Made by a program: the position numbers and the translations under genes. The notes beneath the pieces were generated by a model that did no database searches, was not told the origin of the DNA, and was given only the letters and a program-made list of their open reading frames with translations. From the NCBI GenBank assembly GCA_965248695.1, contig CBDFKD010000002.1, positions 4,704,001 through 4,768,000 of the forward strand: a stretch of 64,000 nucleotides of DNA, given 5' to 3'. Positions within the stretch are counted from its first letter, which is position 1; each line of letters begins with the position of its first letter. Shown here piece by piece: positions 1,388 to 57,816 of this stretch. The stretch comes from Acidobacteriota bacterium. Its GTDB lineage: Bacteria; Acidobacteriota; UBA890; WLXD01.

Positions 1388-3772
1388 CTACTGCAGCCCG
1401 CTGACCTCGAACAGCGTGCTGAGCACGCGCGTGTAGTTGAAGGCGATAATCCCGCCGTCGGCCGTCATTGCGATCGTCGGGAACCCGGCAATGCCGGCAG
1501 GATCGCCGGGCATGAACTCGTTCCACAGTCGGCGCTCGCCGGTGCCGTGGTTCAGGCGGTAGATCCTGACCGGCAGGCCATCACGGTTGAAGACAAAGAT
1601 CTCCCGGTCGTCGTCCGTGAATCGGATGATGACCTCGTCAGGCCCGAGGCCCCGGACCGGAATCGTCTCCTCGCCTTCGAGCGAGTAGAGGGCCTTGAAG
1701 CGTTCAGGCAACGGAAAACCGAGGAGCCATTTGCCGTCGTTCGACAACGGCGTCTGGCCGATGTAGTGCTCGAGGTTGTCCGGACCGATGCCTACGACAT
1801 CTCCAGTTCCGTCCAGGTTCATCGCGAAGAATCGCCACGTGCCGCCTGCTTGCCGCCCGTTGAACACGAGCCGTCGGCCGTCCGGATGAAACCAGCCGAA
1901 AAACGACTGGATCCCGGGGTGGACCAGCTCGCGTGGCGTACCGACACCGACCGGAGTCAGCTCAAACCGGTCTCGTCGCCTCCCGGAGTTGAGCACAAGC
2001 TCCCCGTCGGGTGAGATCGCTCTGCTCTGGCCGCTACCGAGGCGCACGGCGGGAGACCCGTCCAGCTCGCGCACGTAGAACCCCCCAGCGTCATTCAGCA
2101 ACAGGGAGTTCGACCCGGGCGAGATGGCCACGGCAGCGGACTGGTCTAGCCATGACAAATCTATTGGTTCCGGTGCGTCGGGTGTGACCACGAGTATGCC
2201 GCCCTGAACTTGGTCACGACGAACCAACAGGCGGCCATCGGACGCGACATCTTCGAGCGTAACGGATCCTGCGGAGCGCCATTCCTCTTTTGGTACTCCG
2301 CCGGGCTTCCACGACGAGATGGTGGACTCGCCGGGTCCGCTGCGCCTGGAGAACCACAGTCGTTCGCCGGACGGCGCCCACGCGATCCCCGTGATTCGGT
2401 CTGTCTCCAGCACCGTCCGGCTACCGTCTAAGTCGAGCAGCACAATGCCCTCGCCTCGGTGAGAGTACGCTAGGGTCGTGCCGCTCGGTGACGCACGCAG
2501 GCGCCCGAAGATCTCCTGCGATTCGTCGACGATCGTGCCGACAGGAAAGTGCAGCCGGCTGCCGTTTCCGAGGAGTTCGATTGCCGCCAGGCCACCGGCG
2601 GCGAAGTCGGCGCTGCTGATTTTCTGCGCGATCTCGCGGGCCGTCCGAGCACCGGCGGGCAGCGTGGCCAAGGTGCCGACGAATTGCCCTTGGAACAGCT
2701 CGGGCGCGAGGCCGAGCGCCAGAGTGCCGTCGGACTCGGCAAACAGCATGGCGTTGTCCGGCCCGACCTGCTGTGCCTCCGGGCTGCTCTGATGGGTCTC
2801 GAACGGAGCGGGGGCGTTGCCTGCGAACCGAGCGGAGTACCCGACGCTGTCGCCGGCGGACGTGAAGCGTGAGGCGTCGATCGTGCCGCGTCGAACCGTG
2901 AGCTGCCGGATGGTCGGAAGGGTTGAACTCGATGTCTCGGGGCCAAACCAGCTCGTGATCGCCGCAGTCGCGCCGACAAGGACGAGCGCGGCGGCGGCCA
3001 GCGCCAATCTACCGGGCCGCGGCGATTCCGCTGGCGGCAGGGCGAGTTCGGATCCGGAGAGCTCAGGCGGATCCGTTTTTAACACCGCGTGCATGGTCTC
3101 GACGGTGGTGTCCGCCGCGAACGCCCGGTGGCCCGTGAGCAACTCATAGAGAACCGCGCCGAGCGAGAAGATGTCCGACCGGGCGTCGATTGGTTCGCCG
3201 CGTACCTGTTCCGGAGACATGTAGCCGGCCGTGCCGAGGACTCTGCCCGGTTCGGTGCCAGCCGCCACCGTAGCGGCGTCGGCGCCGCTCTGCTCGGTAG
3301 CTGTGAACCGCGCGAGGCCGAAGTCGAGGATCTTGATCCGGCCGTCGGTGGCGACGACCAAGTTCTCCGGCTTGATGTCCCGATGGACGATGCCCTTGGC
3401 ATGGGCAGCTGCGAGCCCCCGCGCGACGCCAACGGTCCACTCTAGGGCTTTGCGCGTCGTCGGCGGACGGGACTCGATCTCCTCTCGTAGTGTCGCGCCT
3501 TCGAGCAGCTCCATGACAACCTAGGTCACGTCGTCTTCCCGGCCGATGTCGTGCACCGCGACGATCCTGGGGTGATCGAGCGTTGCGGTGGCGCGGGCCT
3601 CGCGCTCGAATCGATCCAGGCGCTCGGGATCTGCTGCCACATCGGCCGGGAGAATCTTGATGGCCACGTCGCGGTCCAGCCGGTCGTCGTGTGCCCGATA
3701 CACCTCGCCCATCCCCCCAGCACCAAGTGGGGAGAGGATCTCGTAGTGGCCTAGTCGCGAGCCGGGTTCCAT
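1388..3772 (-). pseudogene. Membrane Hanks-type Ser/Thr kinase with TolB/PD40-like C-terminal propeller, interrupted by an in-frame TAG at 3521-3523 and apparently missing subdomain XI
   Basis: [70 protein letters not shown]. The track ORFs 3521..3880 and 1388..3514 are in the same frame. After ELALPPA the protein goes almost directly to the TM helix. Confidence 0.85.
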
Positions 3773-3965: not shown

Positions 3966-6557
3966 CTAGCGCTGCATGGTGAAGGTGAACTTTGCCGTCA
4001 GCGTGCGGTCGTCCAGGCGGTCGAACAGGCCGCTGAACGCGGTCGACTGCCGGTACACGAGGTAGAAGTCGTCGCCGGTGCGATAGATGTAGCGCAGGCG
4101 CGCGAACGCCGATAGCTGGTCGGTGACGCTGCTGTGCTGCAGTAGCGAGTCGAACAGCAGGCGGTCCGAGAACGACAGGTTGGCGCGCAGCCGTACCAGG
4201 TGCGTGTCGAAGCTGCCCCCCGGTAGATCGATGTGGTTGAAGTTGTACTGCGGGCTCAGGGTGAAGGTGTCGCTGAAGCGGAAGCGGGGGCCCCCACCGA
4301 TGCCGAGGCGCGTGCCGTCGTAGAACTCGCCCAGGTTGAAGGCCAGGCTGCCGCTCACCGCGCGTCGCGGGGCAGTGCGCAGCGTGATCTCACCGTCGGT
4401 CCACGAGTAGTCGCCGATCGGAATGTTTACGTTCTCGTCGATGGGAAAATCGAAATCGAGGAGCTCGTAGTTGCGGTTGATTTGGAAACGGATCGTTTCC
4501 GAAGACTCGAGATCCAGCTGCGTGCTCAAGCTCTCCAGCCGGGAAACCAGTCGCCCGCTGGTGTCGGTGATGCGCTCGAACGAGGGGCTGAACGAAACTC
4601 GCCGCATCAGCGGCCAGCTCGGGCGGATCGACCAGCGTCCCTGCGCCTTCGTGCGAACGATGTCCCGCCGCAGAACGAAGCCGAGATCGGTGTCGAAGTC
4701 GTCAGCCACGTAGGTGACATCGCCGCCGAGCGCCCACTCTTCGGTGTCCCACGCGGCGCTGAGCTGTCCGACCCACGAGGTGCCGTCGACATCGCTGTCC
4801 TGGCCGCCGGCCACGAACCCGGTCAGGAACAGGTGGTCGAAAAGGATGAAGTCCAGGTCGACGCCGAGGACGCGATTGTACCGGCCGTCGGGCCCTTGGA
4901 CGTTGGTCGCCAGCGCGCCGACGCTGGATCGACCGAAAACGGGCTGTTTCCACCGGAAAGCGGCGTAATTCTGCCCGACGCCGAACTGCGAGTCGCCGGT
5001 CTGCACGTTTACGAAGCCGATGTTGCCGTTGCCGATGTTCCCCGTCAGCTTGCCGCCGAAGCGAATGGGGGCCGGTTGCCCCTCGGGCCCGAGACCGATG
5101 CGGCGCGAGAAGAACAATAGCGCCAACGGCGGCTGTCGCTGGAAGCCGAACCCCGCGCTCTCCCCCGATGCACGCCGTGGCAGGGTACCGAAGTTGAAGG
5201 TGTCGCCCCCCTCGAGAAAGAACTCGCGTTGCTCGGGGAAGAACAGCGAGAAGCGCGTCAGGTTGACCCGCTGGGCGTCGGCCTCGACCTGGGCGAAATC
5301 GGTGTTCACCGTCAGGTTGGCGGTGAGGCTCGGGGTCAGCTGTACCTGAAACCTCTCGATGCCGATTTCTCCCCTGCTCTCGGTGAGCGGATCAACACGT
5401 TGCTGGAAGGAGTCGTAGCCGCCGGTGACGAAAGGCTTGAGGCGGAACCGACCCGTGAGCCCCACGTTCTCCAGCCCGACGAGATGGCCGTACTGCGAGA
5501 CAGCCAGAAAGTTGTAGTCGCGGCTGGTGTTGTTCCAGTTGATGCGCTCCTGGTTATGGATCACCTCGCGCTCGTATTCGATCCCCCAAACGTTGCTTCC
5601 GGGCGTAAACCGGAGCGCCGCGAACGGGATGGCCATTTCGGCCTCCCAGCCGCGCTCGGTGATGCTCGCCGCCGCTTCCCAGTTCTCGTCCCAAGCCGTG
5701 TTGAGCTGGCTCTCGTCGCGGATGGTGTAGTCGAACTTGGCGCCGAGCGGGTTGATCTCGAAGCCGAGTTGGTTGCGATGGTCGTGGAACGTGTCGATGT
5801 AGACCGCCACCCAGTCATCCCCGGAATGGAATTCGTCCCGGCGCATCACCGAAGCGCCGATGTTCTGCGGCGTATCGTCGTAGTTGATCCACCCGAAGTA
5901 GAGGGTGTCCTCGTCGTACAGGACGTACACTTCGGTGCGCTTCGTCGGCGCCGCTCCGTTGTTGGGCTCTTTCTGCACGAAGTCGCTCACGACCTCGGCC
6001 AGCATCCATTGCGCGTCGTCGATCCGGCCATCGAGCACCGGGGGCGAGTCCGTCCATGTTGCGAAAGAGACTTTGCCGCCCAGTTCAGCTGCGGATACCG
6101 AACCCACCCCGGCGTTGGTTCGCGGAGCGGCGGCGGCGCTGGCGACGCCGGCAAGGGGCGTCGGCGTCGGAGCTTCGGTTGCTGGCAGCGTCGGGGCTTC
6201 GGTTGCTGGCAGCGTCGGAGCTTCGGTTGCCGGTAACGTCGTATGCTCTGCCGGGATGAGGGAAGGGGCAGCCTCGTCGGAGGGGCGGGGCACCGATTCG
6301 GCGGCGTTGGATCCATCCGGGCTCGAGCTCGGTGCATCGGACACCGGTTGCGGGGCCACCGGGCCGGTTTCGCCAGGTCGGACCATTCGTACCGGGATGT
6401 TGCGACCCGGCGCCGGCCGTACCGGCTCGCCTGGACGGACCATGCGGACGGGAATCGGGCGGCGCCGACGTTCTTGCTCGGCGCCTTCCTGTTCCGCAGC
6501 GCCGGCCGCGCTGGCAAGCATCACGCAGACGGCAGCGAGCGTCAGCGTCCTGCGCAT
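3966..6557 (-). CDS. CBM9-like/DUF5916 putative outer-membrane protein, paralog 1
   Basis: Signal peptide MRRTLTLAAVCVMLASAAGA, Pro/Ala-rich linker, PVLDGRIDD..WEAEMAIPF, NTDFAQVEAD..NLTRFSLFFPEQREFFLEG, amphipathic beta-rich C-terminal half. Confidence 0.85.
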   Translation of the reverse strand: MRRTLTLAAVCVMLASAAGAAEQEGAEQERRRRPIPVRMVRPGEPVRPAPGRNIPVRMVRPGETGPVAPQPVSDAPSSSPDGSNAAESVPRPSDEAAPSLIPAEHTTLPATEAPTLPATEAPTLPATEAPTPTPLAGVASAAAAPRTNAGVGSVSAAELGGKVSFATWTDSPPVLDGRIDDAQWMLAEVVSDFVQKEPNNGAAPTKRTEVYVLYDEDTLYFGWINYDDTPQNIGASVMRRDEFHSGDDWVAVYIDTFHDHRNQLGFEINPLGAKFDYTIRDESQLNTAWDENWEAAASITERGWEAEMAIPFAALRFTPGSNVWGIEYEREVIHNQERINWNNTSRDYNFLAVSQYGHLVGLENVGLTGRFRLKPFVTGGYDSFQQRVDPLTESRGEIGIERFQVQLTPSLTANLTVNTDFAQVEADAQRVNLTRFSLFFPEQREFFLEGGDTFNFGTLPRRASGESAGFGFQRQPPLALLFFSRRIGLGPEGQPAPIRFGGKLTGNIGNGNIGFVNVQTGDSQFGVGQNYAAFRWKQPVFGRSSVGALATNVQGPDGRYNRVLGVDLDFILFDHLFLTGFVAGGQDSDVDGTSWVGQLSAAWDTEEWALGGDVTYVADDFDTDLGFVLRRDIVRTKAQGRWSIRPSWPLMRRVSFSPSFERITDTSGRLVSRLESLSTQLDLESSETIRFQINRNYELLDFDFPIDENVNIPIGDYSWTDGEITLRTAPRRAVSGSLAFNLGEFYDGTRLGIGGGPRFRFSDTFTLSPQYNFNHIDLPGGSFDTHLVRLRANLSFSDRLLFDSLLQHSSVTDQLSAFARLRYIYRTGDDFYLVYRQSTAFSGLFDRLDDRTLTAKFTFTMQR
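6165..6236 (-). repeat. 3 x 24-bp in-frame tandem repeat encoding TLPATEAP
   Basis: Plus-strand unit cgtcggagcttcggttgctggcag at 6165, 6189 and 6213 with few synonymous changes. Confidence 0.92.
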
Positions 6558-6833
6558 GGCCGCGCCGACTCCCGGTCGCGTTTCGTGGGCTTCCGTAATT
6601 GCATGCACCTGCACATCGCTCGTTGATCGAGAAATCTCCCGCACGGTTCCCGATTGGTTTCATTCGGGCGCAACTCCCCCAAATCTAGCAGCGCAGAAGT
6701 TGTGACGCCGAGTAGCTGAGCTCGTTGCTATCCCGACAGGGGCCAATGGCGGACACAGCGCACAACACAGCCGAAAACCATGTACCGGATGTGTGAAGCG
6801 TCGAGCGAATCTGCGGCGGCGCGGGCCGGATGC

Positions 6834-8492
6834 CTACCCTCGAGCGATGGTGTACGTGTGGTAGGGCTGCAGGGTGTCGATCGCCTCGACCGATTCGCTG
6901 CTTCTCCAGGCGAACAAACGCACCGTCACCTCGCCGGGAGTCACGTCGAGCAGCGTGAACCCGTTCTTCTCGAACACCTCGCCGCGTGTTTCGTGCACCA
7001 GGCCGATGGCGGCGAGCGGGGGGGTGCCGCGGTAGTCGGATGGCCAGCCGTTCGCCGTGCCGAGCGTGCCGGTCAAGACCGCGTGGACGGGGTTGGCGGA
7101 GAGGTCCAGGTCGCCGCTGCGCTCGAGCGTCGCGTGACCGATCGCGTGCAGATCGCCAGAGAGCACGATCCCGGGGCGCCGCGGCTGCGAGGTGAGGCTC
7201 TCGAGCACGCGCTGATGCTGCTTCCACCAGCCGGCCTGCCAGAGGAACTTGTCGCGGTCGGTTGTCAAGCCGTAGCGCTCGCCCCCAGGCGTGCTGTCGA
7301 TGGGTGACACCGTCGGACGCGAGGGGTCGCCTATATCGGCAACGTCCGGATACCACTCACGCCACTTGCCGGCCGACCAGCCGAACGGATGCGAGGGCAC
7401 GTGAAGGAGCTGCGCCACGCTCTGGTCACGGGTGCGATCGTGGAGCCAGCGCTCGGCCTCGGGCGGCACCAGTCCAGCATGGTCGCCCTTCAACGACAGG
7501 AAGCGGGCACAGTCGTAGATCAACGCCTCGACCAACCGCCCGTAGCGCAGCGTGCCGAAGGCCTCGGAGATGCCGGGCGCGCGGTCACCGGCCCCGGTTC
7601 CCGACACGGCTAGCGGGCGGTTGCCATCGGGAAGGAACTCCGGAAGGTAGGCGTGCCGCGTGAAGCGGGCGAACTCGAGTTGGTACCGATCGGGCGGGAA
7701 CGTGACCATTCGCGGATCGGCGTCGTCGTTCTCGAAGTAGTCGTGGTCGTCGCTGACGAAGTACGACGGCGTGGAGCGCAACAGCACGCCGTACAGCTGG
7801 GCGATTTGCGGGCTCACCGCCGCCTTCAGGGAGACTTCGTTCTGCGTGCCGAGCACCGGAAGGGTCCGATCCAGCCATCCGACCTGCTCGTGGAACCGCC
7901 GCACCCTACGGCCGTACTCCTCGCCCCGGTTCTCGAGCTCGGTGCGCAGATCCCAGTAGATGTGGTCGCCGATGGCGATGACCGCTCGGGGCTGGAACGA
8001 CAACGCGCGGCGCAGCAATCGGCGTCGCACTTCGATGGGCAGAAACCAGTCGGCGTCGTCCGGGTGGCCCCCGGCACATGTATATGCCAGCAGTCGGACC
8101 GAACGCGGCTCGGCTTGCGGGGCGGGGAACGTACGCAGCGGCCAGGGCTCGCAGAGCGCGTCACCGCCGTTGTCGGCCAGCTGCAGTGTGTACTCGGCGT
8201 CGGGCTCGAGACCGCCGATGTCGAACTTGAAGAAGCGCCCCTGTGTGTCAGTTCGGATGCCGGCGACCTGCCGATCGCCCACCCGCAGGACGGGCGCGAC
8301 GTCGAGCGTGTCGGTGAAGGAGCATTTGATCGCCATCCGATCGTGGCTGGCGGCCGGAAGCAGGTGCTCCAGGGAGCCCGACCACCAGTCTTCCTCAGCC
8401 CGGGCCGGCGTTCGGGGCGCTGTAGCGATCCCGGAGGCAATCGCGGCCGTGGCGATGAAGCGCCGTCGGCTCCACACCGAGTTTCGCGTCAT
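6834..8492 (-). CDS. Tat-exported PhoD-like metallophosphatase
   Basis: SRRRFI Tat motif; GDHIYWD, SDDHDYFEND and SGDLH metallophosphoesterase motifs; N-terminal FN3-like segment (GGLEPDAEY). Confidence 0.8.
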   Translation of the reverse strand: MTRNSVWSRRRFIATAAIASGIATAPRTPARAEEDWWSGSLEHLLPAASHDRMAIKCSFTDTLDVAPVLRVGDRQVAGIRTDTQGRFFKFDIGGLEPDAEYTLQLADNGGDALCEPWPLRTFPAPQAEPRSVRLLAYTCAGGHPDDADWFLPIEVRRRLLRRALSFQPRAVIAIGDHIYWDLRTELENRGEEYGRRVRRFHEQVGWLDRTLPVLGTQNEVSLKAAVSPQIAQLYGVLLRSTPSYFVSDDHDYFENDDADPRMVTFPPDRYQLEFARFTRHAYLPEFLPDGNRPLAVSGTGAGDRAPGISEAFGTLRYGRLVEALIYDCARFLSLKGDHAGLVPPEAERWLHDRTRDQSVAQLLHVPSHPFGWSAGKWREWYPDVADIGDPSRPTVSPIDSTPGGERYGLTTDRDKFLWQAGWWKQHQRVLESLTSQPRRPGIVLSGDLHAIGHATLERSGDLDLSANPVHAVLTGTLGTANGWPSDYRGTPPLAAIGLVHETRGEVFEKNGFTLLDVTPGEVTVRLFAWRSSESVEAIDTLQPYHTYTIARG

Positions 8493-9282: not shown

Positions 9283-9804
9283 CTACCTCGCCACGTCGAA
9301 CTCAGGACGATAGTGCGCCACTCCTCGAAGCTGCTTGGCGCAGTTAACGTCTATGGGCAGGATCATGAAGGCGTCTTGGGGAACACCCTCCCACTGGGAG
9401 CGCACACCGTACTCGTGCGCGCGCACGAAGCCGAAGCGCGGATAGTAACGCTGGTGGCCCAGTACAACTACAAATGGCCATCCCGCGGTTCGTACCTCTG
9501 CAAGGCCGTGCTCTACGAGCTGAGTTCCGATTCCTTGATTCTGATGCACCGGCAGAACGGACATGGGGCCGAGTCCTAGACCGTCAGTAGCCCCGTGTCG
9601 GTGTTGGATCGACACTGGAGAGAACAGGATATGCCCAGCTACTTCGCCCGCAGCTATCGCCACGAACGACATCACGTTCGGCGCCGCTTGTCGAAGAGCG
9701 TCGACGATGTCCGCCTCCTCCCACTGGCCGAAGGCGAGCTGGTTGACGGTCCGAATCGCGAGGAAGTCCTCTTCTCGTTCGCGGCGAATGTTGACCATGG
9801 GCAT
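9283..9804 (-). CDS. GNAT N-acetyltransferase (YhbS-like)
   Basis: GHILFS, LGPMSVLPVHQNQGIG (acetyl-CoA motif A), VVLGHQRYYPRFGF; start may be 9798. Confidence 0.9.
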   Translation of the reverse strand: MPMVNIRREREEDFLAIRTVNQLAFGQWEEADIVDALRQAAPNVMSFVAIAAGEVAGHILFSPVSIQHRHGATDGLGLGPMSVLPVHQNQGIGTQLVEHGLAEVRTAGWPFVVVLGHQRYYPRFGFVRAHEYGVRSQWEGVPQDAFMILPIDVNCAKQLRGVAHYRPEFDVAR

Positions 9805-9818
9805 CTGGTGCTGCAAGG

Positions 9819-9876
9819 GTCGAACAGCGGGCTGAAGCTGGATTTGGCAGATGGCAGCTGTCCGATCGCGTTCTTA
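9819..9876. mobile_element. Degenerate attC-like imperfect palindrome
   Basis: GTCGAAC agcgg gctgaAGCTG...CAGCT gtccgatcgc GTTC: outer GAAC/GTTC and inner AGCTG/CAGCT pairs, directly upstream of the GNAT gene. Core sites deviate from RYYYAAC/GTTRRRY. Confidence 0.25.
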
Positions 9877-10007
9877 GTTTGGTGGGTCGGCTAATCCAAA
9901 ACGACCGAAACCCATGGTAGGTTCAAGCGTCACGCGCGGAGCGTGGTTCAGCGCGTAGGGTACCGGCAAGCGCGGGGAGCCTGGACAACCAATCGCAGGA
10001 GTCGAGG

Positions 10008-11438
10008 ATGAGTGAGAAGGTGGGTCGTGCGAAGGATGGTGTTGAGGGGTCCGGGGTAACGAGGCGTGATTTCACGCGCTCGTCCGTGGTGGCCGGCGCC
10101 GCAGCCGTAACCATGCCGTCGGCGCTCCGCGCCGAGAGTATCGGCAGCCACGAGGCTCTCGCAGCGGCGAGCCAGGGTCCGGTTCCCGACGACTGGGTTC
10201 CGGGCACCACGATTCCGGCGAAGTACTACCTGGACGAGGAGATCTACCTCCGCGACGAGGCGCTGCTTCGTGATCACGTGTGGCTGTTCGCCGACCACGA
10301 GAGCCGTATTCCGAACGCCGGCGACTACTTCGTGTTCCCGTTCGGCCGCAACGACAGCATCATCGTGGTGCGCAACGAGGCCGGAGTGATCAACGCCTTC
10401 CACAACGTCTGCCGTCACCGCGGCTCGCGCCTGTGCCGTCACGATGCTGACGCGATTCCCGACGACCCGCGGCTGTCCGTAAAGCAGCTGGGACAGGGCG
10501 GAACGTCTCCCGTCTTCCGGTGTCCGTACCATGCGTGGACGTACGACGTCGACGGCAACCTGATCTACGCCTACGGGATGCAAGAAGATTTCGATCCGGC
10601 CGACAACGGCCTGAAGCCCTGCAATCTCAAGACTTACGAGGGCCAGATCTTCCTGCATCTCGGCGAAGGCGAGCCCCCGGACTTCGAACCCTACGTCCGA
10701 AGGATCGAGGCCATCTCCCACCGCCATGGCACCGCCCAGCTCAAGATCGCTGCCCGGCGCCAGTACGTCATGCACGCAAACTGGAAGCTGGCCCTGGAGA
10801 ACTTCCTCGAGTGCTATCACTGCGGACCATCGCATTCGTGGCTGGTAGCAGCGCACGATTGGGACTATGCGCTCAGCGAGGAGCAACGCGCCGAGCTGGA
10901 AAAGGATCTCGATTCGTGGGTGGTGGGTGAGGCACGGCCCGGGGGTAGCGATACCGACGAAGTGAGCCTGCGCAACAACGCCGGCGTCGGCAAGGGCTTC
11001 CTGAACCCGGGCGTCGAGACCGGTACACTCGACGGCAAGCGTGCCGCGCCGCTACTGCCGACCTTCGACAAGCCGACCCACGGCTTCCGGGAAGCAGGAT
11101 CGGGCTGGTACACCGGCTACTGGGCCGCCTACGACGATCATGTCGCCATCGCGCGGTTCGCGCCTCGCGACGTTGACTTCACCGACGTCGAGATCATTTG
11201 GCTGGTACATCCGGATGCCGAGGAAGGCCGTGACTACGATGTCGAGGACGTGATCGACCTCTGGCACGTCACGATTCAGGAAGACAAGTGGGTCGTTGAG
11301 AACAATCATGCCGGCGTCCGCTCGGGCCGCTACGGGGCGGGACGCTACGCTATCCACGAGCCGCTCCCCCGCGCGTTCGTGGATTGGTACATGAGATCCT
11401 TGGCCGGAGCTGATCCGGGCGGTTCCTCCTTCACGTAG
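10008..11438 (+). CDS. Rieske non-heme iron oxygenase alpha subunit (GbcA/betaine demethylase-like) with Tat signal
   Basis: TRRDFTRSSVVAGAAAVTMPSALRA; CRH...CPYH; NWKLALENFLECYHCGPSH; QEDKW; GGAG/GAGG upstream. Confidence 0.9.
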   Translation: MSEKVGRAKDGVEGSGVTRRDFTRSSVVAGAAAVTMPSALRAESIGSHEALAAASQGPVPDDWVPGTTIPAKYYLDEEIYLRDEALLRDHVWLFADHESRIPNAGDYFVFPFGRNDSIIVVRNEAGVINAFHNVCRHRGSRLCRHDADAIPDDPRLSVKQLGQGGTSPVFRCPYHAWTYDVDGNLIYAYGMQEDFDPADNGLKPCNLKTYEGQIFLHLGEGEPPDFEPYVRRIEAISHRHGTAQLKIAARRQYVMHANWKLALENFLECYHCGPSHSWLVAAHDWDYALSEEQRAELEKDLDSWVVGEARPGGSDTDEVSLRNNAGVGKGFLNPGVETGTLDGKRAAPLLPTFDKPTHGFREAGSGWYTGYWAAYDDHVAIARFAPRDVDFTDVEIIWLVHPDAEEGRDYDVEDVIDLWHVTIQEDKWVVENNHAGVRSGRYGAGRYAIHEPLPRAFVDWYMRSLAGADPGGSSFT

Positions 11439-11455
11439 GGCTGGGCTCGTTCACC

Positions 11456-11472
11456 GCCCGCGTTCCGCGGGC
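11456..11472. terminator. GC hairpin between convergent genes
   Basis: GCCCGCG-ttc-CGCGGGC between stops at 11438 and 11489; no U-tract. Confidence 0.35.
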
Positions 11473-11488
11473 TGCCAGTCCCTCCGCC

Positions 11489-12880
11489 CTATTCCTCGGC
11501 TGCGACCGGGTCGGGGTCGGGATTGATCCGATCGTCGGTCGACTTATCTTCGGCACCGGAGTGCGCGTTCGGCAGCGCGCCGAAAACGCCTCTGAGAATC
11601 CAGAGCGTACCGACGATGATCAGACCCAACATGATCCATCGGAGGAGGGTCGCGGCGAATCCTGCGTCCATGACCGGGGCGCGAACGTCGTACCGGACGA
11701 GCTCCGCCCCCCGCTCGGTCATCCAGTGCCAGCCGGTGTGTGCCAGGAAGGCCGACAACACGATCGTGCCCGACACCTCGGGAAGCCAGCGGCGGAACAG
11801 GAAGTCGAGCACCGGCACGGTCAGCGCGAGAACGAAGAGCTGACCGAGCTCCACCCCGACGTTGAAGGACAGCAGGGAGGTGATGAGGTGGGCGCCGGCG
11901 AACTGTAGCGACTCCGACAGGGCGAACGAGAACCCGAAACCGTGGATGAGTCCAAACCCGAACGCGATCATCCATCGGCGCCGCAGCTTCGCCCCGATGA
12001 TGTTCTCGAAGGCCATGAAGACGATCGACAGCGCGATCAGCGTCTCGATGAGCGGCGGGAACCAGAGGGCGTTGGGAGCGAGACCGAACGCCGACGCGAT
12101 CAGCGTGATCGAGTGGGCGATGGTGAACGAGGACACGATCGGGACGAGCGCCCAGAAGCGTCGAAACGGCACGACCAGGCAGAACAGAAACAGCAGGTGG
12201 TCGATGCCGTCGAGAATGTGCTCGAATCCCAGGACGATGAAGCGCCAGGCGGCCTGGTGCCACCGGGGATCGAGCCGGAACGGTCCCAAGTTACCGGTGT
12301 ACTGGAAGGCGCGCTCCGGGCCGCCGGCCGGCAGGAACCGCAACACTGTCAGCGTCCTCAGCCCCAGGTGCGCCCAGCGGGCGTCGATGGTGAATTCGGA
12401 ATCCTCCGAGGAGATCGGCCACTCCATGAGCACGTCGAGCATCGCCTGCTGCAACGGAAGATCCGTACCGACCGGAAGCGCGGCCGACCGCACGTTCGCG
12501 AGGGCCGTCTCGTAGCTCCGGAAGGCTCGATCGCCTGGAATGGCGATGCGAACGCCGGTGACCTCCGGCAAACCCAGCGAGGCGCCCGCCTCGAACATCT
12601 CGACGTAGTTGCCGATCCACTGGATTGCGGCCTCACGGCTCAGCTCGGTTGCCTCCGGTAGCTCCAGGTATCCGGGATCGCGTACGGGAAAGGTGTAGTC
12701 CCTCATCGAGGGCAGGGGAACTCGGACCAGGGCCCGGATGGTGCGCCCCTCGGGGGCGACGAAGGCCTGGAGAGTTACATCGGCCGGGATCTCGTGCGCC
12801 TCCCTCGACCAAGTCGGGAGAAGGAGAACCAGCGCGACGACGAGTACGGCAGCGCGGCGGAGGCGTTCTTGGTCGGGCAT
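11489..12880 (-). CDS. HupE/UreJ-family membrane protein with an extracytoplasmic N-terminal domain
   Basis: Signal peptide ending EA-HEIP; GFEHILDGIDHLLFL, FTIAHSITL, FGLIHGFGF and FNVGVELGQ motifs. Confidence 0.88.
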   Translation of the reverse strand: MPDQERLRRAAVLVVALVLLLPTWSREAHEIPADVTLQAFVAPEGRTIRALVRVPLPSMRDYTFPVRDPGYLELPEATELSREAAIQWIGNYVEMFEAGASLGLPEVTGVRIAIPGDRAFRSYETALANVRSAALPVGTDLPLQQAMLDVLMEWPISSEDSEFTIDARWAHLGLRTLTVLRFLPAGGPERAFQYTGNLGPFRLDPRWHQAAWRFIVLGFEHILDGIDHLLFLFCLVVPFRRFWALVPIVSSFTIAHSITLIASAFGLAPNALWFPPLIETLIALSIVFMAFENIIGAKLRRRWMIAFGFGLIHGFGFSFALSESLQFAGAHLITSLLSFNVGVELGQLFVLALTVPVLDFLFRRWLPEVSGTIVLSAFLAHTGWHWMTERGAELVRYDVRAPVMDAGFAATLLRWIMLGLIIVGTLWILRGVFGALPNAHSGAEDKSTDDRINPDPDPVAAEE

Positions 12881-18562: not shown

Positions 18563-19537
18563 ATGTCGACAGAGCCCGTCGCTACGGAACGCCCTTCACA
18601 GCGTCGAATCATGTGCGCCTGGATCACGATGGCGCTTGTCGGGGGTAGCTCGTGGCTGGTGATCCGCGTCGGGCTCGACGACATGCCGCCGTTCACGTTC
18701 TCGGGGATCCGCTTCGCCGTTGCGGCGCCTCTCCTGGCGGCCATCCTCTGGATTCGGAACCGGGGCCGCGACGCCGAAGCCCGGGCCGCCGACGCCCATG
18801 GGTCGATCTCCCCGACGCGGGCGCAATGGCGCGTCCTGATCGTCGTCGGCATTCAGGTGTTCATTGTCGGCAACGCGGCTTCGTTCTGGGGCCAGCAGTA
18901 CGTGCCTTCGGGCATCACCGGGGTGCTGTACGCGATCGGTCCCGCCGCTGCGATGCTGATCGCGTGGGTACGCATCGGCGACCCGCTCTCGGCCAGCCGG
19001 ACCTTTGGCCTGGCGCTCGGAATTGCCGGCGTGGCGCTGATCTCGGGCCGTCAGATTCAGCTAGGCGGACACCAAGTGGCCGCCGGGCTGGCAGGGGTCT
19101 CCGTCGGCGTCCTGTGCCTGGCGTGGGCCACCGTGTCCGTGCGGGAGCTACGTAGTGGCCTCGACCCTCTTTTCATCGCCCTGGTGCAGATCACCATGGG
19201 CGCGATGGCGCAGTTGGGCTTCGGGTACTTGCTGGAGAGCTCGGCTCCGTTTCGTCACACGCCGTCGGCCATCGGCGCCATCGTGTGGCTGGCTGTGGCC
19301 GGCTCGCTGGGAGCGTTCTGGCTGTTCTACTGGCTGCTGCGCCACATGGAGGCCACGCAAGTGCTGTCGCACTTGCTCGTCACCCCGATCATCGCCCTGT
19401 TTCTCGGCTGGGCGTTGCGCGGTGAGCAGGTCGGATGGCTCGAGGCGGGCGGTGTCGTTCTGGTTCTGGCCGGCGTCTATCTGGTGCTGTCGGCCAGGAG
19501 GGAGCCAAGCTCGGCTACCAGTCGAAGGATCGCGTGA
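18563..19537 (+). CDS. EamA/DMT family transporter
   Basis: About ten TM helices; PPFTFSGIRF, VPSGITGVL, TPIIALFLGWALRGE. Overlaps the convergent gene by 23 nt. Confidence 0.88.
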   Translation: MSTEPVATERPSQRRIMCAWITMALVGGSSWLVIRVGLDDMPPFTFSGIRFAVAAPLLAAILWIRNRGRDAEARAADAHGSISPTRAQWRVLIVVGIQVFIVGNAASFWGQQYVPSGITGVLYAIGPAAAMLIAWVRIGDPLSASRTFGLALGIAGVALISGRQIQLGGHQVAAGLAGVSVGVLCLAWATVSVRELRSGLDPLFIALVQITMGAMAQLGFGYLLESSAPFRHTPSAIGAIVWLAVAGSLGAFWLFYWLLRHMEATQVLSHLLVTPIIALFLGWALRGEQVGWLEAGGVVLVLAGVYLVLSARREPSSATSRRIA

Positions 19538-22169
19538 CCTTGAGGGTCAAGGTGCGGTCGTGTCGGCCGACGCGGAAGCCGTCGTAGTCGCCGGCCTGAC
19601 GGTAGACCAGATAGATGTCGTCGCCGATGCGATGGATGTAGCGCAGGCGGGCGAACAGCGACACCGAATCGAAAACATTGTTGTACTGGATCAGGGCATC
19701 GGTGAGCCAGCGATCCGAGAAGCTGTAGCTGACGCGAGTGTTCAACACGTTGGAGGTGAAGCTCCCTGCCGGGAGGTCGAACTTGTTGAAGCTGAACCCG
19801 GGCGAGATGAGCAGGTTGGGGCTCGGTCGGAACGTCAAGCGTGGCGATAGCGTTACGATGGTCCCGTCGTAGAACGCTCCGATGCGCGCGTCGCCACCAA
19901 TGCTCACCCAGCGACCGGCGAAGCTGCGGAAGAGAGCGTACAGGTAGCGGTACCTGTACTCGCCCGGCGGGATAGTCACCTCGGGATGGATCTGAAAGGG
20001 GAGGTCGAGGCGATCGAAGAAGCTCACGGCGAGCACCCCTCCGAAGTCGCCCGCCTCGGTGTTCAAGAACGCGCCGGCCCATGACTCGCGCCCGACGAGC
20101 TCGCCGTGGGTGTCGCGGAACGTCGTCTGGTTGGCGCTGAAGTTAACCGATCGCAGCCACGGGATACCGCCGGGCCGAGGATTCCACGATGCGCGGTAGA
20201 CGCGGCGCACGACATCCTGGCGCAGGACGAAGCCCAGATCGGCCCTGAACTCGGGGTCGATGTGCGTGAGGTCGAAGCTGGCGCGCCACAGATCGCTCTG
20301 CCAGGCGACGCGGACCTGTCCTGCGAACTTGCCGTCCTCGAGGGTGTCGTCGGTGGCGCGGGCAGCGAACCCGGCGATGTTGAGGTTGTCGAAGAACGTG
20401 AAGCTCGCGTCCGCGCCGACCACCGTGTTGGTGCCGCCGTCCGCTCTCTCGACGTTGGTGGCCAGCGCCCCGACGCTGGATCGAGACAGCACGTCCTGGC
20501 GCCAGCGCAAAGCGGTGAATTGCTGGCCGCCGACGAGATCCGGGGTATCGGTGCGGACGTGCAGCAGGCCCATCGTGCCACCGGCCACCTTGCCCGTCAT
20601 CTTGGCGCCGAAGTCGATCGGCACCGGCGCCCCCGAGTCCGATAGACCGATGTTGCGCGAGTGGTACAGACGCAGCAGCGGGGGCTCGGTGCTCCCGTCG
20701 CCGCCGCGCGGCCCGAAGCTGAAGTTGTTGGCGCCCTCGAGGAAGAAGTCGCGCTTCTCGGGGAAAAAGAGCGAGAAGCGCGTCAGGTTGACGCGCTCGT
20801 CGTCGAGCTCGACCTGCGCGAAGTCGGTGTTGTAAGTGAGATCGGCAGTGAGCGTGGAGGTGAGCTGGATCTTGAGGTCGTCGATGCCGAGTTGCTGATC
20901 GACGCTGTTGGTCCGCGTCGGATCCTCAAACAGCGACGTCGAGGTTCCGAGGAAGTAGGGTCGGAGCCGGAACCGTTGTTTCAACGACAGGTTTTCGAAG
21001 CCGCGTAGGTCGCCTGCCTGCGATACGGCGATGAACCGGAAGTCGCGTCGGTAGTTGCTCCACGCCACCGATTCGTTCTTACGCCGTATCTGGCGCTCGA
21101 AGTCGACACCCCAGCCCGAGGCGCTGGTGGAGTAACGGAGGATGCCGAGTGGGATCACGAGCTCGGCCTCCCAGCCGCGCGAGGTGATCTGCGCGGCGGC
21201 GTCCCAGGCCTCGTCCCAGTCGGAGTTCACCTCGCTCTCGTTAAGGATGGTGGCGTCGTAGCGGGCCCCGAGTGGGTTGACGCGGAACAGGAACGCGCTG
21301 CGACCGTCGTTGAAGGTGTCGAGCACGACGCTCACCGTATCGTCCGAGCCTCGGCTATCGCCGCCACTGCCACTCCCTCCTCCGAGCGCGTCGCGTCGTA
21401 GCTCGCTGGCGAGGATCGCGCCGGGATCGCTGTCATACGCAATCACGCCGATGTACAGGTTCTCGTCGTCGTAGAGGATCCGCACCTCGGTGCGCTCCGA
21501 GGCCCCCTGGCCCTGCGTCGGCTCGCGCTGCAGGAAACCGCTGGCGACGTCGGCCAACGCCCAGCTCGCATCGTCCACGATCCCGTCCATCACCGGCGCC
21601 TCGGTGGTGCGCGACACGGCCATTTCCGGCCGGACCCCGGGTGCACGAATCGTTGGCGGTCGCGGACCGACCGGGGCCTCGAGATCGGGCTGGATCGGCT
21701 GCTCCGGGTCGGCGAGGCTATCGCCGGCCGAAGGAATGGTCTCGACGCGCGACACGGAATCCGCGTGGATGCCCGCCCACGCCGCCACCCGGGCCGAGTC
21801 GCCCACCGGCGCGAAGCTCGATCGCGGGGGTCCGTCGAGCTCGTTCGGTGCCACCATCCGCACGGGGATGACCCTTCGGACGGACTGTGGGGGCACGGAG
21901 GCCGGCATGGCGCGACGACGCGCCGTCGAAGGTGACGGGGACGGTGCGGTGCTGCTGTCCGGTGTGACCAGACGAACGGGGAAGCTCGTGGGTCGCCCCG
22001 GTACCGTGGCTTCGGAGCCCCCGTCGTCCGGGCGCTCCGCTGCCACTGCCTCATCCTGGCGCTCTTGCCGCGCCGGGTCGTCCTCAGACTGCCCCGGCCT
22101 GTCCGCGCTTGGCGCCGTGGCCACCAACAGGGCGAGGCATACGGACAGGACGCACTTGTGCTTGAGCAA
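19515..22169 (-). CDS. CBM9-like/DUF5916 putative outer-membrane protein, paralog 2
   Basis: Signal peptide; APVMDGIVDD; YNTDFAQVELDDERVNLTRFSLFFPEKRDFFLEG; ends RSFDW. TTG start uncertain. Confidence 0.85.
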   Translation of the reverse strand: MLKHKCVLSVCLALLVATAPSADRPGQSEDDPARQERQDEAVAAERPDDGGSEATVPGRPTSFPVRLVTPDSSTAPSPSPSTARRRAMPASVPPQSVRRVIPVRMVAPNELDGPPRSSFAPVGDSARVAAWAGIHADSVSRVETIPSAGDSLADPEQPIQPDLEAPVGPRPPTIRAPGVRPEMAVSRTTEAPVMDGIVDDASWALADVASGFLQREPTQGQGASERTEVRILYDDENLYIGVIAYDSDPGAILASELRRDALGGGSGSGGDSRGSDDTVSVVLDTFNDGRSAFLFRVNPLGARYDATILNESEVNSDWDEAWDAAAQITSRGWEAELVIPLGILRYSTSASGWGVDFERQIRRKNESVAWSNYRRDFRFIAVSQAGDLRGFENLSLKQRFRLRPYFLGTSTSLFEDPTRTNSVDQQLGIDDLKIQLTSTLTADLTYNTDFAQVELDDERVNLTRFSLFFPEKRDFFLEGANNFSFGPRGGDGSTEPPLLRLYHSRNIGLSDSGAPVPIDFGAKMTGKVAGGTMGLLHVRTDTPDLVGGQQFTALRWRQDVLSRSSVGALATNVERADGGTNTVVGADASFTFFDNLNIAGFAARATDDTLEDGKFAGQVRVAWQSDLWRASFDLTHIDPEFRADLGFVLRQDVVRRVYRASWNPRPGGIPWLRSVNFSANQTTFRDTHGELVGRESWAGAFLNTEAGDFGGVLAVSFFDRLDLPFQIHPEVTIPPGEYRYRYLYALFRSFAGRWVSIGGDARIGAFYDGTIVTLSPRLTFRPSPNLLISPGFSFNKFDLPAGSFTSNVLNTRVSYSFSDRWLTDALIQYNNVFDSVSLFARLRYIHRIGDDIYLVYRQAGDYDGFRVGRHDRTLTLKVTRSFDW

Positions 22170-24267: not shown

Positions 24268-25719
24268 GTGAAGCTCCGCTGCGTCGTACTCGGACTGGTC
24301 TGGCTCGCCGGGTCTGTATCGACTGGTCCGGGGTCAGCAAGTGCAGTGGGGGCGAGCGACAAAGGGGTCGAGCGCATCGTCGTGGTCGGCGGCGGCGTCT
24401 ACGGCCTGGCCGCAGCACGCGACCTACAAGATGCCGGTTTCGAGGTCGTCGTCCTTGAGGCCAAGGATCACCTCGGCGGCCGGGTCTGGACGGACCGCAG
24501 CACAGGGTTCCCGCTCGACATGGGAGCGAATTGGATCCAAGGGGTCGACGGCAACCCGATTACGGTGCTGGCCGATCGGCTCGGCCTCGGGCGGGTCATG
24601 ACCAACTGGGAGAGATGGGTCGACTATGACGTTGACGGTTCTCGGGACCCGCTCAGCAGCGCGCAGTACACAGAGTGGGAGGGCACGCTGCAAGCGTATA
24701 CGCGCGATTTCGTGCGTCGGTCCGCGAACGCGACGATCCAGGTAATGGTCGATGCGGCACGTCGAGCGGGCGAGCTGGATTCCCTCACCGATCGCCAGCT
24801 CGACTACCTACTGAACAGCTATGTGGAGTTGGAGTACGCTGCCGATGCCGCGCAGATGTCGGTTCGGGGTCTCGACGAGGGCGGCGCGTTCGGCGGCGGG
24901 GATGTTGTTTTCCCCGGCGGCTACGACGCCATCGTCGAATCCCTGGCATCGGGCCTCACGGTCCACCTGTCGACGGTGGTCACGACCATCGAACATGGCC
25001 GCTTCGGGGTGCGCGTTCGCACCGACCGGGGCACCTTCGAGGCGGATCGAGTCGTGGTGACCCTCCCGTTGGGGGTGCTCAAGTCGGGGAACGTGGACTT
25101 TTCCCCGCGACTCCCGATCTGGAAGCGCAAGGCTATCGAGAGGCTTGCGATGGGGGTCCTCAACAAGGTTTGGCTCGTGTTCGCGAACGTATTCTGGGAT
25201 GCGGACCTGCACTGGATCGGTTACCTGAGCGAGGATAAGGGGCGGTTCGCGGGCTGGCTCAACCTCGCCGCTCACACGGGCGCACCGGTGTTGCTCGCGT
25301 TCAACGCCGGAGCCTACGGAAACGAGGTCGAAGCGCTGAGCGACGAGCAGACACTCGAGCAGGCCATGGGCGTACTGCGCACTCTGTACGGGGCTGCCGT
25401 GACCGAGCCTGTGGCCGTCAGGATCACACGCTGGAACTCTGACCCGTTCGCCTATGGGTCGTACTCCTACCTACCCCCAGGCGCCCGTTCGGTACATCGG
25501 CGCCGGTTGGCACGTCCCGTCAAGGGCCGATTGTACTTCGCGGGTGAGGCTACCAGCACGCGCTACCCCGCGACTGTGCACGGGGCCTATCTGTCGGGAA
25601 CCCGGGCCGCCGACGAGATCGTGACTCGGGCCGATGGTAGCCGGGGCGCCACGGTTTCACCCCAGCAGCGGAGATCCCATGTTCGCTGGCGAGAGTTTCC
25701 GACAACACTGGATTCGTAG
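24268..25719 (+). CDS. Flavin-containing amine oxidase (polyamine/monoamine oxidase family) with Sec-like signal peptide
   Basis: VVGGGVYGLAAA, LEAKDHLGGRV, DMGANWI, DPFAYGSYS, FAGEAT..TVHGAYLSG. Confidence 0.92.
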   Translation: MKLRCVVLGLVWLAGSVSTGPGSASAVGASDKGVERIVVVGGGVYGLAAARDLQDAGFEVVVLEAKDHLGGRVWTDRSTGFPLDMGANWIQGVDGNPITVLADRLGLGRVMTNWERWVDYDVDGSRDPLSSAQYTEWEGTLQAYTRDFVRRSANATIQVMVDAARRAGELDSLTDRQLDYLLNSYVELEYAADAAQMSVRGLDEGGAFGGGDVVFPGGYDAIVESLASGLTVHLSTVVTTIEHGRFGVRVRTDRGTFEADRVVVTLPLGVLKSGNVDFSPRLPIWKRKAIERLAMGVLNKVWLVFANVFWDADLHWIGYLSEDKGRFAGWLNLAAHTGAPVLLAFNAGAYGNEVEALSDEQTLEQAMGVLRTLYGAAVTEPVAVRITRWNSDPFAYGSYSYLPPGARSVHRRRLARPVKGRLYFAGEATSTRYPATVHGAYLSGTRAADEIVTRADGSRGATVSPQQRRSHVRWREFPTTLDS

Positions 25720-37304: not shown

Positions 37305-38006
37305 GTGCTCGCACTCCGTAGTCGCGCAATCGTGCCAGAGGTCATGGATCAGCCTGGCCTCGACGCGGATGTCCATCGGCACGCCCTCGTGGGCCTGACC
37401 AGAGTGAATCGGCTCTCGCGGGTGTCCTCGACGATCTGGCGGGGGGTGTTCTCGGCGCTCGACACCTCGCCCACGCTCAGCGTGCTCGATCTCGGCTGCG
37501 CCTCGGGCGATGTTGCGCTGGGGCTGTATCAACGTGCCTCGGCCGCTGGCGTTCAGCTTCGTATCGAAGGTTGGGACATCAGCCCGCGGGCGGTCGATCG
37601 GGCACGACGCGCGGCGGAGCGAATGCGTGTTCCGGCGCGCTTTCGCGTACGTGATGTCCTCGTCGACGAGTTGCCGGGTGGATACGATGTGATCATGAGC
37701 AACTTGCTGATCCACCATCTCCACGACTCCGACGCCGCGCGACTGCTCGAGCGCATGGGTGCCGCTGCGGGTCGACTCGTGGTGATCGACGATCTCGTCC
37801 GCGGAGCCACGGGATACCTCCTGGCATTCGTGGGGACGCGCATGCTGAGCAGGTCGAGCGTCGTACACACCGACGGCCCGCGCTCCGTACGCGCCGCGTT
37901 CACGCCGGCCGAGGTGGCCGCGATGGCTCGTTCGGTGGGTCTGCGGCATGTTCGCACCCGTCGACACTGGCCGTGCCGATATCTGTTGCTGGCCGAGCCC
38001 CGATGA
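37305..38006 (+). CDS. SAM-dependent methyltransferase (type III PKS-associated)
   Basis: PEVMDQP, VLDLGCASGD, NLLIHHL, DGPRSVRAAFT. Confidence 0.9.
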   Translation: MLALRSRAIVPEVMDQPGLDADVHRHALVGLTRVNRLSRVSSTIWRGVFSALDTSPTLSVLDLGCASGDVALGLYQRASAAGVQLRIEGWDISPRAVDRARRAAERMRVPARFRVRDVLVDELPGGYDVIMSNLLIHHLHDSDAARLLERMGAAAGRLVVIDDLVRGATGYLLAFVGTRMLSRSSVVHTDGPRSVRAAFTPAEVAAMARSVGLRHVRTRRHWPCRYLLLAEPR

Positions 38007-42602: not shown

Positions 42603-42742
42603 CACGGGCGCTCCAATCCCGTCGAGATCCACGATCGCCGTCGGCCGGTGGATCCCGGAAGCGGTGTTTTTTGTCAGATCTCTGCACCCTGACCAGCTCA
42701 CATCGATGCACGGCTTGTATAGTGCCGTCTGAGTACATGCCG

Positions 42743-52155: not shown

Positions 52156-52181
52156 CCGGCGCAGCTCATCCGGAGGTTTCG

Positions 52182-54472: not shown

Positions 54473-54531
54473 GCGACGGAACAATCGACTAGACCTCTAC
54501 CAAGTTGTCGAGAAGCCGCGGCGCTCGGGGC

Positions 54532-55650: not shown

Positions 55651-55695
55651 TCGGCACCTCTGCCGTCGTCTTGGCCCCTCGATGCTCTTGGCGAG

Positions 55696-57687: not shown

Positions 57688-57816
57688 GGGGTCCGCCTGT
57701 TCGTTCGAGGAACATCGTGCACCCTACCGCACACGCGTCCGTGCATCAGCCCGGCGCTCATCGCCGGTGACTCGGTTTCTTCCACGCTCGATCGCTGTTC
57801 CCGGGAATGAGCATAG

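Follow-up and report, generated by a model that had tools for sequence, protein, structure and literature searches.

A predicted Tat-exported Rieske oxygenase of Acidobacteriota and its candidate heme-protein electron donors

Rieske oxygenases such as the stachydrine demethylase Stc2 (structures 3vca and 4qup) and the uncharacterised protein of structure 3n0q are cytoplasmic and supplied by NAD(P)H reductases. The carnitine monooxygenase CntA and the glycine betaine monooxygenase GbcA work with partner reductases of the CntB/GbcB type, which carry an FAD_binding_6 domain. A 2025 review of electron transfer in Rieske oxygenases covers supply by flavin reductase and ferredoxin only, and the periplasm, twin-arginine signals and cytochrome b5 go unmentioned in it. 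No description of a Rieske oxygenase that is periplasmic or exported by twin-arginine translocation (Tat) was found in the full-text literature, subscription journals lying largely outside the coverage. Here we analyse 64,000 nucleotides of an acidobacteriotal genome (contig CBDFKD010000002.1, positions 4,704,001 to 4,768,000; this whole stretch is called the window), in which a gene on the plus strand encodes a Rieske non-heme-iron oxygenase alpha subunit with an N-terminal Tat-type leader. A first-pass annotation, made from the DNA letters, had set this gene against the rule that characterised Rieske oxygenases are cytoplasmic and fed by NAD(P)H reductases, a rule that the coverage of the review bears out. 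The reading we favour, with our confidence about evenly balanced, is that the protein is a periplasmic, Tat-exported monooxygenase of the Group V type, fed in trans by heme proteins and not by an NAD(P)H reductase; the periplasm is without NAD(P)H.

The gene is the open reading frame (ORF) 10008..11438 (+) of the window's ORF list and encodes 476 aa, assigned by Pfam and by the solved relatives 3n0q, Stc2 (3vca/4qup) and CntA. Its product begins with MSEKVGRAKDGVEGSGVTRRDFTRSSVVAGAAAVTMPSALRA, followed by ES, and the opening residues MSEKVGRAKDGVEGSGVTRRDFTRSSVVAGAAAVTMPSALRAES comprise a polar n-region, T-R-R-D-F-T-R, a 16-residue uncharged Ala/Val/Gly-rich stretch, L-R-A and then Glu. The n-region (residues 1-17, 10008..10058), as judged from 30 aligned clade members (alignment A1), differs between homologues in both length and sequence, and its predicted local distance difference test (pLDDT) score is below 50. 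The twin-arginine motif T18-R-R-D-F-T-R24 (10059..10079) fits the TatP regular expression, and its R19 and R20 are nearly invariant in A1. It is followed by the h-region S25-L40 (SSVVAGAAAVTMPSAL, 10080..10127), which is uncharged and mildly hydrophobic (Kyte-Doolittle 12-residue means of at most 1.58; predicted helix at residues 19-30), and by the c-region A39-L-R-A42/E43 (10122..10136), a putative signal peptidase I site that follows the family pattern V/L-R/G-A then E. A low-complexity linker, E43-V64 (10134..10199), leads to the mature domain; its pLDDT stays below 50 up to residue 57, and its length ranges from about 20 to about 70 residues in homologues. All of these features lie on the plus strand. 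The TRRDF motif, hydrophobic stretch and ALRA-like site that the first-pass annotation had picked out ahead of the oxygenase thus occupy codons 18-42 (10059-10133).

The annotation had allowed that the true start might lie downstream of the twin arginines. A Shine-Dalgarno-like AGGAG, read directly from the sequence, stands at 9997..10001 (+), 6 nt 5' of the oxygenase ATG, and no better start was found. The next in-frame ATG, M36, was considered and rejected: no Shine-Dalgarno sequence precedes it, and the codons upstream of it are conserved and under purifying selection. Compared with a 95% identical ortholog, leader codons 1-45 carry 10 synonymous and 5 non-synonymous changes (dN/dS 0.15), close to the value for the whole gene (0.14). 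Since M36 has no ribosome-binding site and the leader codons are conserved at this low dN/dS, translation starts upstream of the RR motif, with the leader under selection. A decaying orphan pseudogene was likewise rejected, the frame being intact, all catalytic residues kept and dN/dS 0.14. A scan of 9600-11700 found no promoter-like site, and one terminator-like site, no more than in shuffled sequence.

Conservation of the leader in homologues, which the annotation had proposed as a check, is extensive. Among the 120 best database homologues (47-95% identity), 110 have [STNDG]RR.[FL] in the first 70 residues and 111 have the looser RR.[FLIVMA]; the leader consensus is (K)VSRRDFAKTSVAAGAAAVALPxxLRAE. 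Six of the nine rows without the looser motif begin within the h- or c-region (e.g. MAAGAAAVAFPSMLRA). One of these six, P0074, is preceded by in-frame, stop-free DNA that reads VSRRHFAKTSVAAGAAAV (VSRRHFAK). P0054, P0079 and P0120 begin at the mature domain; they keep the clade insertion described below and nest beside leader-bearing paralogues in the tree. P0074 corresponds to the second oxygenase of an operon at locus L130 (G255:C182), where at 2853-2936 (-) the RR motif is in frame and no ATG, GTG or TTG lies between the preceding stop and the h-region; initiation may be at a rare start codon, and the gene is truncated in public gene calls. Within the source genome, the RR leader is present in 16 of 16 paralogue gene calls. 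By a crude criterion of motif plus hydrophobicity, 172 of 4240 gene calls in this genome have Tat-like N-termini, against 30 of 3048 internal control segments, and the genome encodes Tat machinery (two TatC and three TatA/B matches above cut-offs). Collectively, the reading of start site, conservation and substitution pattern indicates that the oxygenase leader is translated, conserved and under selection; export of the protein by Tat is predicted.

What follows the leader is, as first annotated, a full oxygenase alpha subunit. Pfam Rieske matches residues 92-188 (46.3 bits; cut-off 20.3) and Ring_hydroxyl_A residues 245-466 (99.4 bits). The Rieske [2Fe-2S] domain lies at 10281..10571 (+), with the ligands C135, H137, C172 and H175 in the motifs C135-R-H137 and C172-P-Y-H175, and the catalytic domain lies at 10740..11405 (+), with the bridging E268, the Cys pair C269/C272 and the iron ligands H271, H276 and D426, assigned by alignment. 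All ten of these residues are invariant in A1. E268, H271, H276 and D426 align with the motif of 3n0q and 3vca. By sequence, the closest solved relatives are 3n0q and Stc2 (3vca, 4qup), with CntA matching over the Rieske half. An AlphaFold2 model (mean pLDDT 75.5, predicted template modelling score 0.78, residues 1-57 below 50, helix at 19-30) gave in Foldseek top folds that are all Rieske oxygenases, in the same ranking as by sequence. The best NCBIfam model is GbcA (NF058607, equivalog), and identity with GbcA was rejected because the score of 224.2 bits is far under the equivalog cut-off of 670. In CntA, E205, C206 and C209 form a bridging Glu and a CxxC beside the iron, a feature of the Group V (quaternary ammonium) enzymes that is shared with Stc2 (PMC10952381). 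The E-C-x-H-C motif of the window protein matches these three CntA residues as so described. By its residues the protein is therefore a Group V-type Rieske monooxygenase, outside any characterised orthologous group and with a predicted activity.

Two hallmarks, the leader and a 17-residue insertion, set the clade of the protein apart. The insertion, D146-G162 (10443..10493, +), falls between CxH and CxxH and appears as a gap in alignments to 3n0q and 3vca. The insertion is thus placed, in sequence, between the two cluster-binding loops. All 120 clade members have a CxH-CxxH spacer of 34 or 35 residues (34 in the window protein); at ten clade genome loci it is 34 in nine and 42 in the other, and in all 46 leaderless outgroup relatives it is 17. 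Within the insertion, D153, R155, L156, S157, V158 and Q160 are invariant in A1. Translated, these 46 more distant proteins (30-39% identity; Proteobacteria, Chloroflexota and others) begin 15-35 residues ahead of the conserved core, and none carries a Tat-like leader. In a quick maximum-likelihood tree of 61 rows, all 41 leader-clade rows group to the same side of a branch that is 1.15 long and has a Shimodaira-Hasegawa-like approximate likelihood ratio (SH-aLRT) of 100, a support value that comes from the quick search. A scan with one genome per species found loci of at least 44% identity in Acidobacteriota metagenome-assembled genomes only (11 of 11), although several of the 11 contigs appear to belong to the same assemblies as G001-G003 and are not independent. 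Nine of these 11 loci have the in-frame RR motif, and at L022 the frame is truncated. Across the phylum, an even sample of 401 genomes, scored for at most four candidates per genome, yielded the clade in eight genomes and in three of 228 genera. By these comparisons the clade is acidobacteriotal wherever the organism is named.

The window oxygenase is monocistronic, with a divergent GNAT gene upstream and a convergent HupE/UreJ-family gene downstream. No ORF with CxxCH lies within 8 kb of it, and no match to the SpdH-like proteins discussed below was found in the 64-kb window. The first-pass annotation saw no ferredoxin or reductase for the enzyme in the window, and this holds: the only ferredoxin-like gene (~52152-52646) is part of a molybdenum hydroxylase 40 kb away. 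That Fer2 protein was rejected as donor on account of its Fer2 plus Fer2_2 architecture, its place directly after the molybdopterin subunit and its distance. The HupE/UreJ, GNAT and NHL neighbours were rejected as partners in their turn, being kept only in the genome of the 95% ortholog and not beside the 70-72% orthologs. Nor was a reductase or ferredoxin found beside any of the other copies examined, and the two-component NAD(P)H flavin/[2Fe-2S] reductase arrangement of Group V was not found here. The description of the gene as standing alone is correct for its surroundings, where no partner adjoins it, and does not extend to the genome or to its orthologs: the 5.89-Mb source genome holds 18 paralogues (45-57% identity by tblastn), and its 72% ortholog has an SpdH-like neighbour. 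Congeneric genomes hold 7 to 24 oxygenase matches, and 26 other relatives have no match at E <= 1e-60.

Clustering of the paralogues' neighbours revealed one dominant family of ~650 residues with its own Tat leader. Its members match the spermidine dehydrogenase SpdH of Pseudomonas aeruginosa over the full length (E 5e-115 to 1e-142) and number about 26-28 in the source genome and about 26-35 per genome in the genus. An SpdH-like gene lies within 6 kb of 12 of the 17 paralogues listed and within 320 bp of seven; the 18th paralogue is ~82 kb from the nearest. Across four congeneric genomes with 64 oxygenase matches, an SpdH-like gene lies within 500 bp in 16 cases, within 3 kb in 30 and within 8 kb in 37. 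By chance, with ~30 copies in 6 Mb, under a tenth of genes would be so close. The gaps are as small as 21-104 bp, on the same strand. The paralogue neighbours are themselves Tat or Sec proteins, namely SpdH-like proteins, cytochromes c and amidohydrolases. TIGR01409 passes the leader of the SpdH-like neighbour (23.8 against a cut-off of 16.7). In the P. aeruginosa enzyme (PaSpDH), electrons move from FAD to a heme b that is exposed at the surface and ligated by His54 and His562; the enzyme can reduce cytochrome c and ferricyanide, and an electrode accepts its electrons directly, with an onset of -0.14 V versus Ag/AgCl (PMC12564564). The two histidines so named are invariant in 16 of 16 aligned SpdH-like copies; each of the two heme-ligand motifs is present in most of the 26 SpdH-like gene calls, and Tat leaders are also mostly kept. 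Two loci in the source genome (G000) deserve mention in their own right. One of the three TatA/B genes, at C2:3832446-3832592, lies 497 bp 3' of an oxygenase/SpdH-like pair (3828404-3831949), by IS3-type transposase ORFs. A tandem gene pair at C2:5609594-5612289 immediately precedes the oxygenase paralogue at 5612335; both products, of ~425 aa, have a membrane segment at the N-terminus and one CxxCH near residue 122.

The orthologs of the window copy record how it may have come to stand alone. The 72% ortholog (G001, locus L013) has an intact SpdH-like gene with a Tat leader 107 bp downstream on the same strand. Beside the 70% ortholog (G002), 271 bp downstream, is an SpdH-like remnant (G002:C9:3132802-3133113) that comprises the last 105 codons and is 88% identical to the L013 gene; its truncated sequence marks it as a partner whose decay is in progress. 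The 95% ortholog (G003) has the same neighbours as the window copy. No SpdH-like gene is near the ortholog in G004, G003 or the source genome, the nearest in G004 being 17 kb away. These arrangements suggest that the oxygenase/SpdH-like pair was probably ancestral to the orthologous group and then lost repeatedly. Since the partner has been lost while the oxygenase has stayed under purifying selection, its donors could act in trans.

A second and more constant partner candidate is a family of small c-type cytochromes. Homologous proteins of about 155-205 residues are encoded beside the oxygenase in five places. In G255 they form an operon of the order SpdH-like, oxygenase, oxygenase, cytochrome; in G061 the cytochrome ORF overlaps or abuts the oxygenase stop; in G340 it is directly downstream of the oxygenase; and at L020 and L023 it is convergent with the oxygenase. 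Four of these cytochromes are 47-61% identical among themselves. They match Cytochrome_CBB3 and Cytochrom_C and have one CxxCH each and a conserved Met-Pro; those of G255 and G061 also have lipobox-like sequences (LLAIGC and LLALGC, respectively). G061 (100% complete) and G340 (92%) each hold exactly one clade oxygenase and one family cytochrome, adjacent to each other. At E <= 1e-30 neither genome has a match to the SpdH-like proteins, so SpdH is dispensable for the oxygenase. On this gene content the cytochrome is the partner retained when the system is minimal. In four genomes of the window's genus, an SpdH-like gene is followed after ~230 bp by the closest cytochrome homologue (52-54% identity), a gene order that links the dehydrogenase to the same carrier. 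The annotation had named a cytochrome c, a quinol or peroxide-driven turnover as possible supplies; the cytochrome c fits the gene neighbourhoods of relatives in four other lineages, and its role as donor to the window protein is a prediction.

We propose the following course for the enzyme. The oxygenase would gain its [2Fe-2S] cluster in the cytoplasm and then be exported in the folded state via Tat, and its leader would be cleaved, probably after A42, to leave an enzyme at work in the periplasm. Heme proteins of the periplasm, with genes at other places in the genome, would supply two electrons per turnover. The likeliest donor would be a small class I c-type cytochrome of the one conserved family, delivering electrons at the Rieske histidines; it would in turn receive them from dehydrogenases of the periplasm, for example the SpdH-like FAD/heme b amine dehydrogenases. 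In an amine or a quaternary ammonium compound, the enzyme may hydroxylate a carbon that adjoins nitrogen, as with Stc2, CntA and GbcA, and the clade insertion may form part of the docking surface or tune the cluster. The window copy would be an orphan served in trans, its lineage having lost the adjacent SpdH-like gene. A more specific and more tentative version of this proposal is a three-part, NAD(P)H-independent periplasmic system, in which an SpdH-like enzyme would oxidise an amine, a dedicated small cytochrome c would carry the electrons and the Tat-exported, insertion-adapted monooxygenase would activate O2 with them and so cleave C-N bonds. Here the ~18 oxygenases and 26 dehydrogenases to which the genus has expanded the system would share carriers in trans, hence orphan copies such as that of the window, and the compounds whose C-N bonds are cleaved would not need to be imported.

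Several observations weigh against the proposal of a periplasmic enzyme fed by heme proteins. Thermodynamics is its weak point. Box II reads CPYHAW, the form seen in oxygenase Rieske centres of low potential. The candidate donors probably have a higher potential, and reduction of the Rieske centre by a His/Met cytochrome c or by heme b, with an onset near +0.06 V versus the standard hydrogen electrode (a conversion of the -0.14 V versus Ag/AgCl reported for PaSpDH), could be uphill. The invariant CxxC beside the iron would face an oxidising compartment; the CxxC of CntA is described as helping to keep Fe(II) reduced (PMC10952381). The leader is also atypical. Neither Pfam TAT_signal (PF10518) nor NCBIfam TIGR01409 matches its residues 1-60 at E <= 10, and a Tat profile gives the leader of the 72% ortholog only 10.6 bits (cut-off 22.7). 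The TatP expression, RR.[FGAVML][LITMVF] (PMC1182353), fits just 13 of the 120 homologues, though the RRDFT of the window protein fits. The family motif SRRxFAK has Ala at the consensus Leu position of SRRxFLK, and the Leu three residues before the putative cut (-3) makes a poor substrate for signal peptidase. As for the donors, no family cytochrome is encoded beside any oxygenase in the source genome, and none within 8 kb of the window gene. In the genus, 27 of the 64 oxygenase matches (about 40%) have no SpdH-like gene within 8 kb, the nearest being farther off or the contig having none, and the adjacency counts come from kin genomes of one genus, so that their independence is overstated. 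Finally, the source genome does contain one NAD_binding_1 match, 278 kb from the window oxygenase. No FAD_binding_6 domain was found in this 96% complete genome and that match is lone and distant; the usual Group V reductase type is therefore not evident.

Five other explanations were weighed against these data. Of the alternatives, the one we take most seriously, while still judging it unlikely, keeps the enzyme in the periplasm and dispenses with the cytochrome c: the surface heme b of the SpdH-like flavocytochrome would reduce the oxygenase directly, and amine oxidation would pay for O2 activation. We know of no physiological acceptor of SpdH, which would leave room for such a role. SpdH-like genes are the commonest neighbour in the genus, at the short same-strand gaps given above, and most of the 26 copies keep the heme ligands and Tat leaders; the heme of PaSpDH is, moreover, described as surface-exposed and capable of direct electron transfer (PMC12564564). 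However, G061 and G340 have the oxygenase and the cytochrome without an SpdH-like match, and the window copy and four of five orthologs lack the partner yet show purifying selection. It is improbable, in our estimate, that the leader stays uncleaved and serves as a Tat signal anchor, like that of the bc1 Rieske subunit, with the flexible linker tethering the oxygenase to the outer face of the inner membrane. The poor Leu at -3, the low-complexity linker of 20-70 residues after the leader in all homologues and the lipobox-like G255 and G061 cytochromes, which are probably membrane-tethered too, would suit an anchor, but the uncharged stretch of ~13-16 residues is Ala/Gly-rich and short for a stable transmembrane helix, and Ala at -1 followed by Glu is conserved.

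A cytoplasmic enzyme, in which the RR stretch would be vestigial or a chaperone-binding remnant and an ordinary reductase would be encoded elsewhere, has a slim chance of being correct. Vestigial Tat leaders exist, that of NarG being an example; the Tat profile hidden Markov models give this leader no score, its motif departs from SRRxFLK, and one NAD_binding_1 protein is encoded. Against this, conservation of the motif, h-region and A/E site extends across a deep clade, the paralogues have Tat or Sec proteins as neighbours, the genome has no FAD_binding_6 and no reductase or ferredoxin accompanies any copy examined. We consider it very improbable that a periplasmic enzyme is driven by H2O2 through a peroxide shunt, with no electron donor at all. 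Peroxide-driven single turnover is known for naphthalene dioxygenase, and flavin amine oxidases nearby (window 24268-25719) could make H2O2; however, the Rieske ligands and bridging Glu, needless in a pure shunt enzyme, are invariant, the partner genes encode electron carriers, and SpdH is a dehydrogenase and not an oxidase. Just as little weight is given to a reversed flow of electrons, in which the protein would be a dehydrogenase whose Rieske cluster passes substrate electrons to cytochrome c, as in arsenite oxidase. The Tat-exported Rieske proteins of bc1 and arsenite oxidase do donate to c-type cytochromes, and the adjacent cytochrome would fit, but the 2-His-1-carboxylate site, the bridging Glu and the Group V CxxC are all kept, and we know of no oxygen-independent chemistry for the Rieske oxygenase fold.

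Other genes of the window were recorded alongside. A 552-aa protein at 6834-8492 (-), which matches no Pfam family at E <= 0.001, has a clear RR leader (SRRRFIATAAIASGIATAP) to which TIGR01409 gives 14.2 bits (cut-off 16.7); its DDHDYFENDD is reminiscent of PhoD-type phosphatases. A second Rieske oxygenase, leaderless and of 338 aa (60376-61769, +; Rieske, Ring_hydroxyl_A and VanA_C), begins directly at the end of a 125-aa cupin gene and has no reductase close to it. Exported redox enzymes are clustered at 49936-59037: a molybdopterin subunit with a Tat leader (49936-52155), followed by the Fer2/Fer2_2 protein (~52152-52646), a pyrroloquinoline quinone (PQQ) dehydrogenase (55696-57687) and, with an RR leader, a flavoprotein of the DAO type (57817-59037). 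Within 40 kb on the minus strand lie three large DUF5916 paralogues (3966-6644, 19515-22169 and 40299-42701), of which two also have a CBM9 domain. A small biosynthetic cluster may be present at 37305-40227 (+), where genes for a methyltransferase, an FAD-binding monooxygenase-like protein and a type III polyketide synthase are consecutive.

If the proposal of a Tat-exported enzyme fed by heme proteins is true, it would give a much-studied enzyme family a compartment and a class of redox partner that are both new to it, and would raise the question of how a Rieske centre with a low-potential-type motif gets reduced by a cytochrome. It would also offer a possible physiological acceptor for SpdH-type dehydrogenases and suggest that soil Acidobacteriota break down amines or quaternary ammonium compounds in the periplasm. 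A system that does not need a nicotinamide cofactor would be of interest for biocatalysis.

Compared with described systems, the window protein is nearest to Stc2 (3vca, 4qup) and 3n0q, which are its best matches by sequence (phmmer E 1e-51 to 4e-54) and by fold (Foldseek E about 1e-29 to 2e-30, TM 0.77-0.81 on the target) and which share its Rieske ligands, E-C-x-H-C motif and His/His/Asp site. They differ in that they are only ~28-30% identical, are leaderless, start ~15-35 residues before the core and are without the 17-residue insertion. CntA has the same Cys pair and bridging Glu beside the iron, and GbcA is the best NCBIfam model, but the sequence alignment of CntA to the window protein covers residues 67-278 only, and a reductase of the CntB/GbcB type has no counterpart in the source genome. 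The Rieske subunits of bc1/b6f and the small subunit of arsenite oxidase resemble the window protein in joining a [2Fe-2S] Rieske domain to a twin-arginine leader and in having c-type cytochromes as redox neighbours. In contrast to the whole oxygenase with a box II of the low-potential CPYH type seen here, they are small electron-transfer subunits with high-potential clusters and no mononuclear-iron domain. SpdH of P. aeruginosa (PDB 7d9f-7d9j) is a partner candidate and not a relative of the oxygenase; the SpdH-like neighbours keep its Tat leader and heme ligands, and PaSpDH has not been reported with a Rieske oxygenase. A precedent for a heme-protein donor is CMP-N-acetylneuraminic acid hydroxylase (CMAH), a Rieske-type hydroxylase that is fed by cytochrome b5 and not by ferredoxin (PMC9219854). 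It differs in being eukaryotic, cytosolic, ultimately NAD(P)H-dependent through b5 reductase and of unrelated sequence context. To these systems the analysis of the window adds the case of an orphan oxygenase, the loss of a partner with selection retained, an insertion that marks a clade, and minimal genomes with one oxygenase and one cytochrome.

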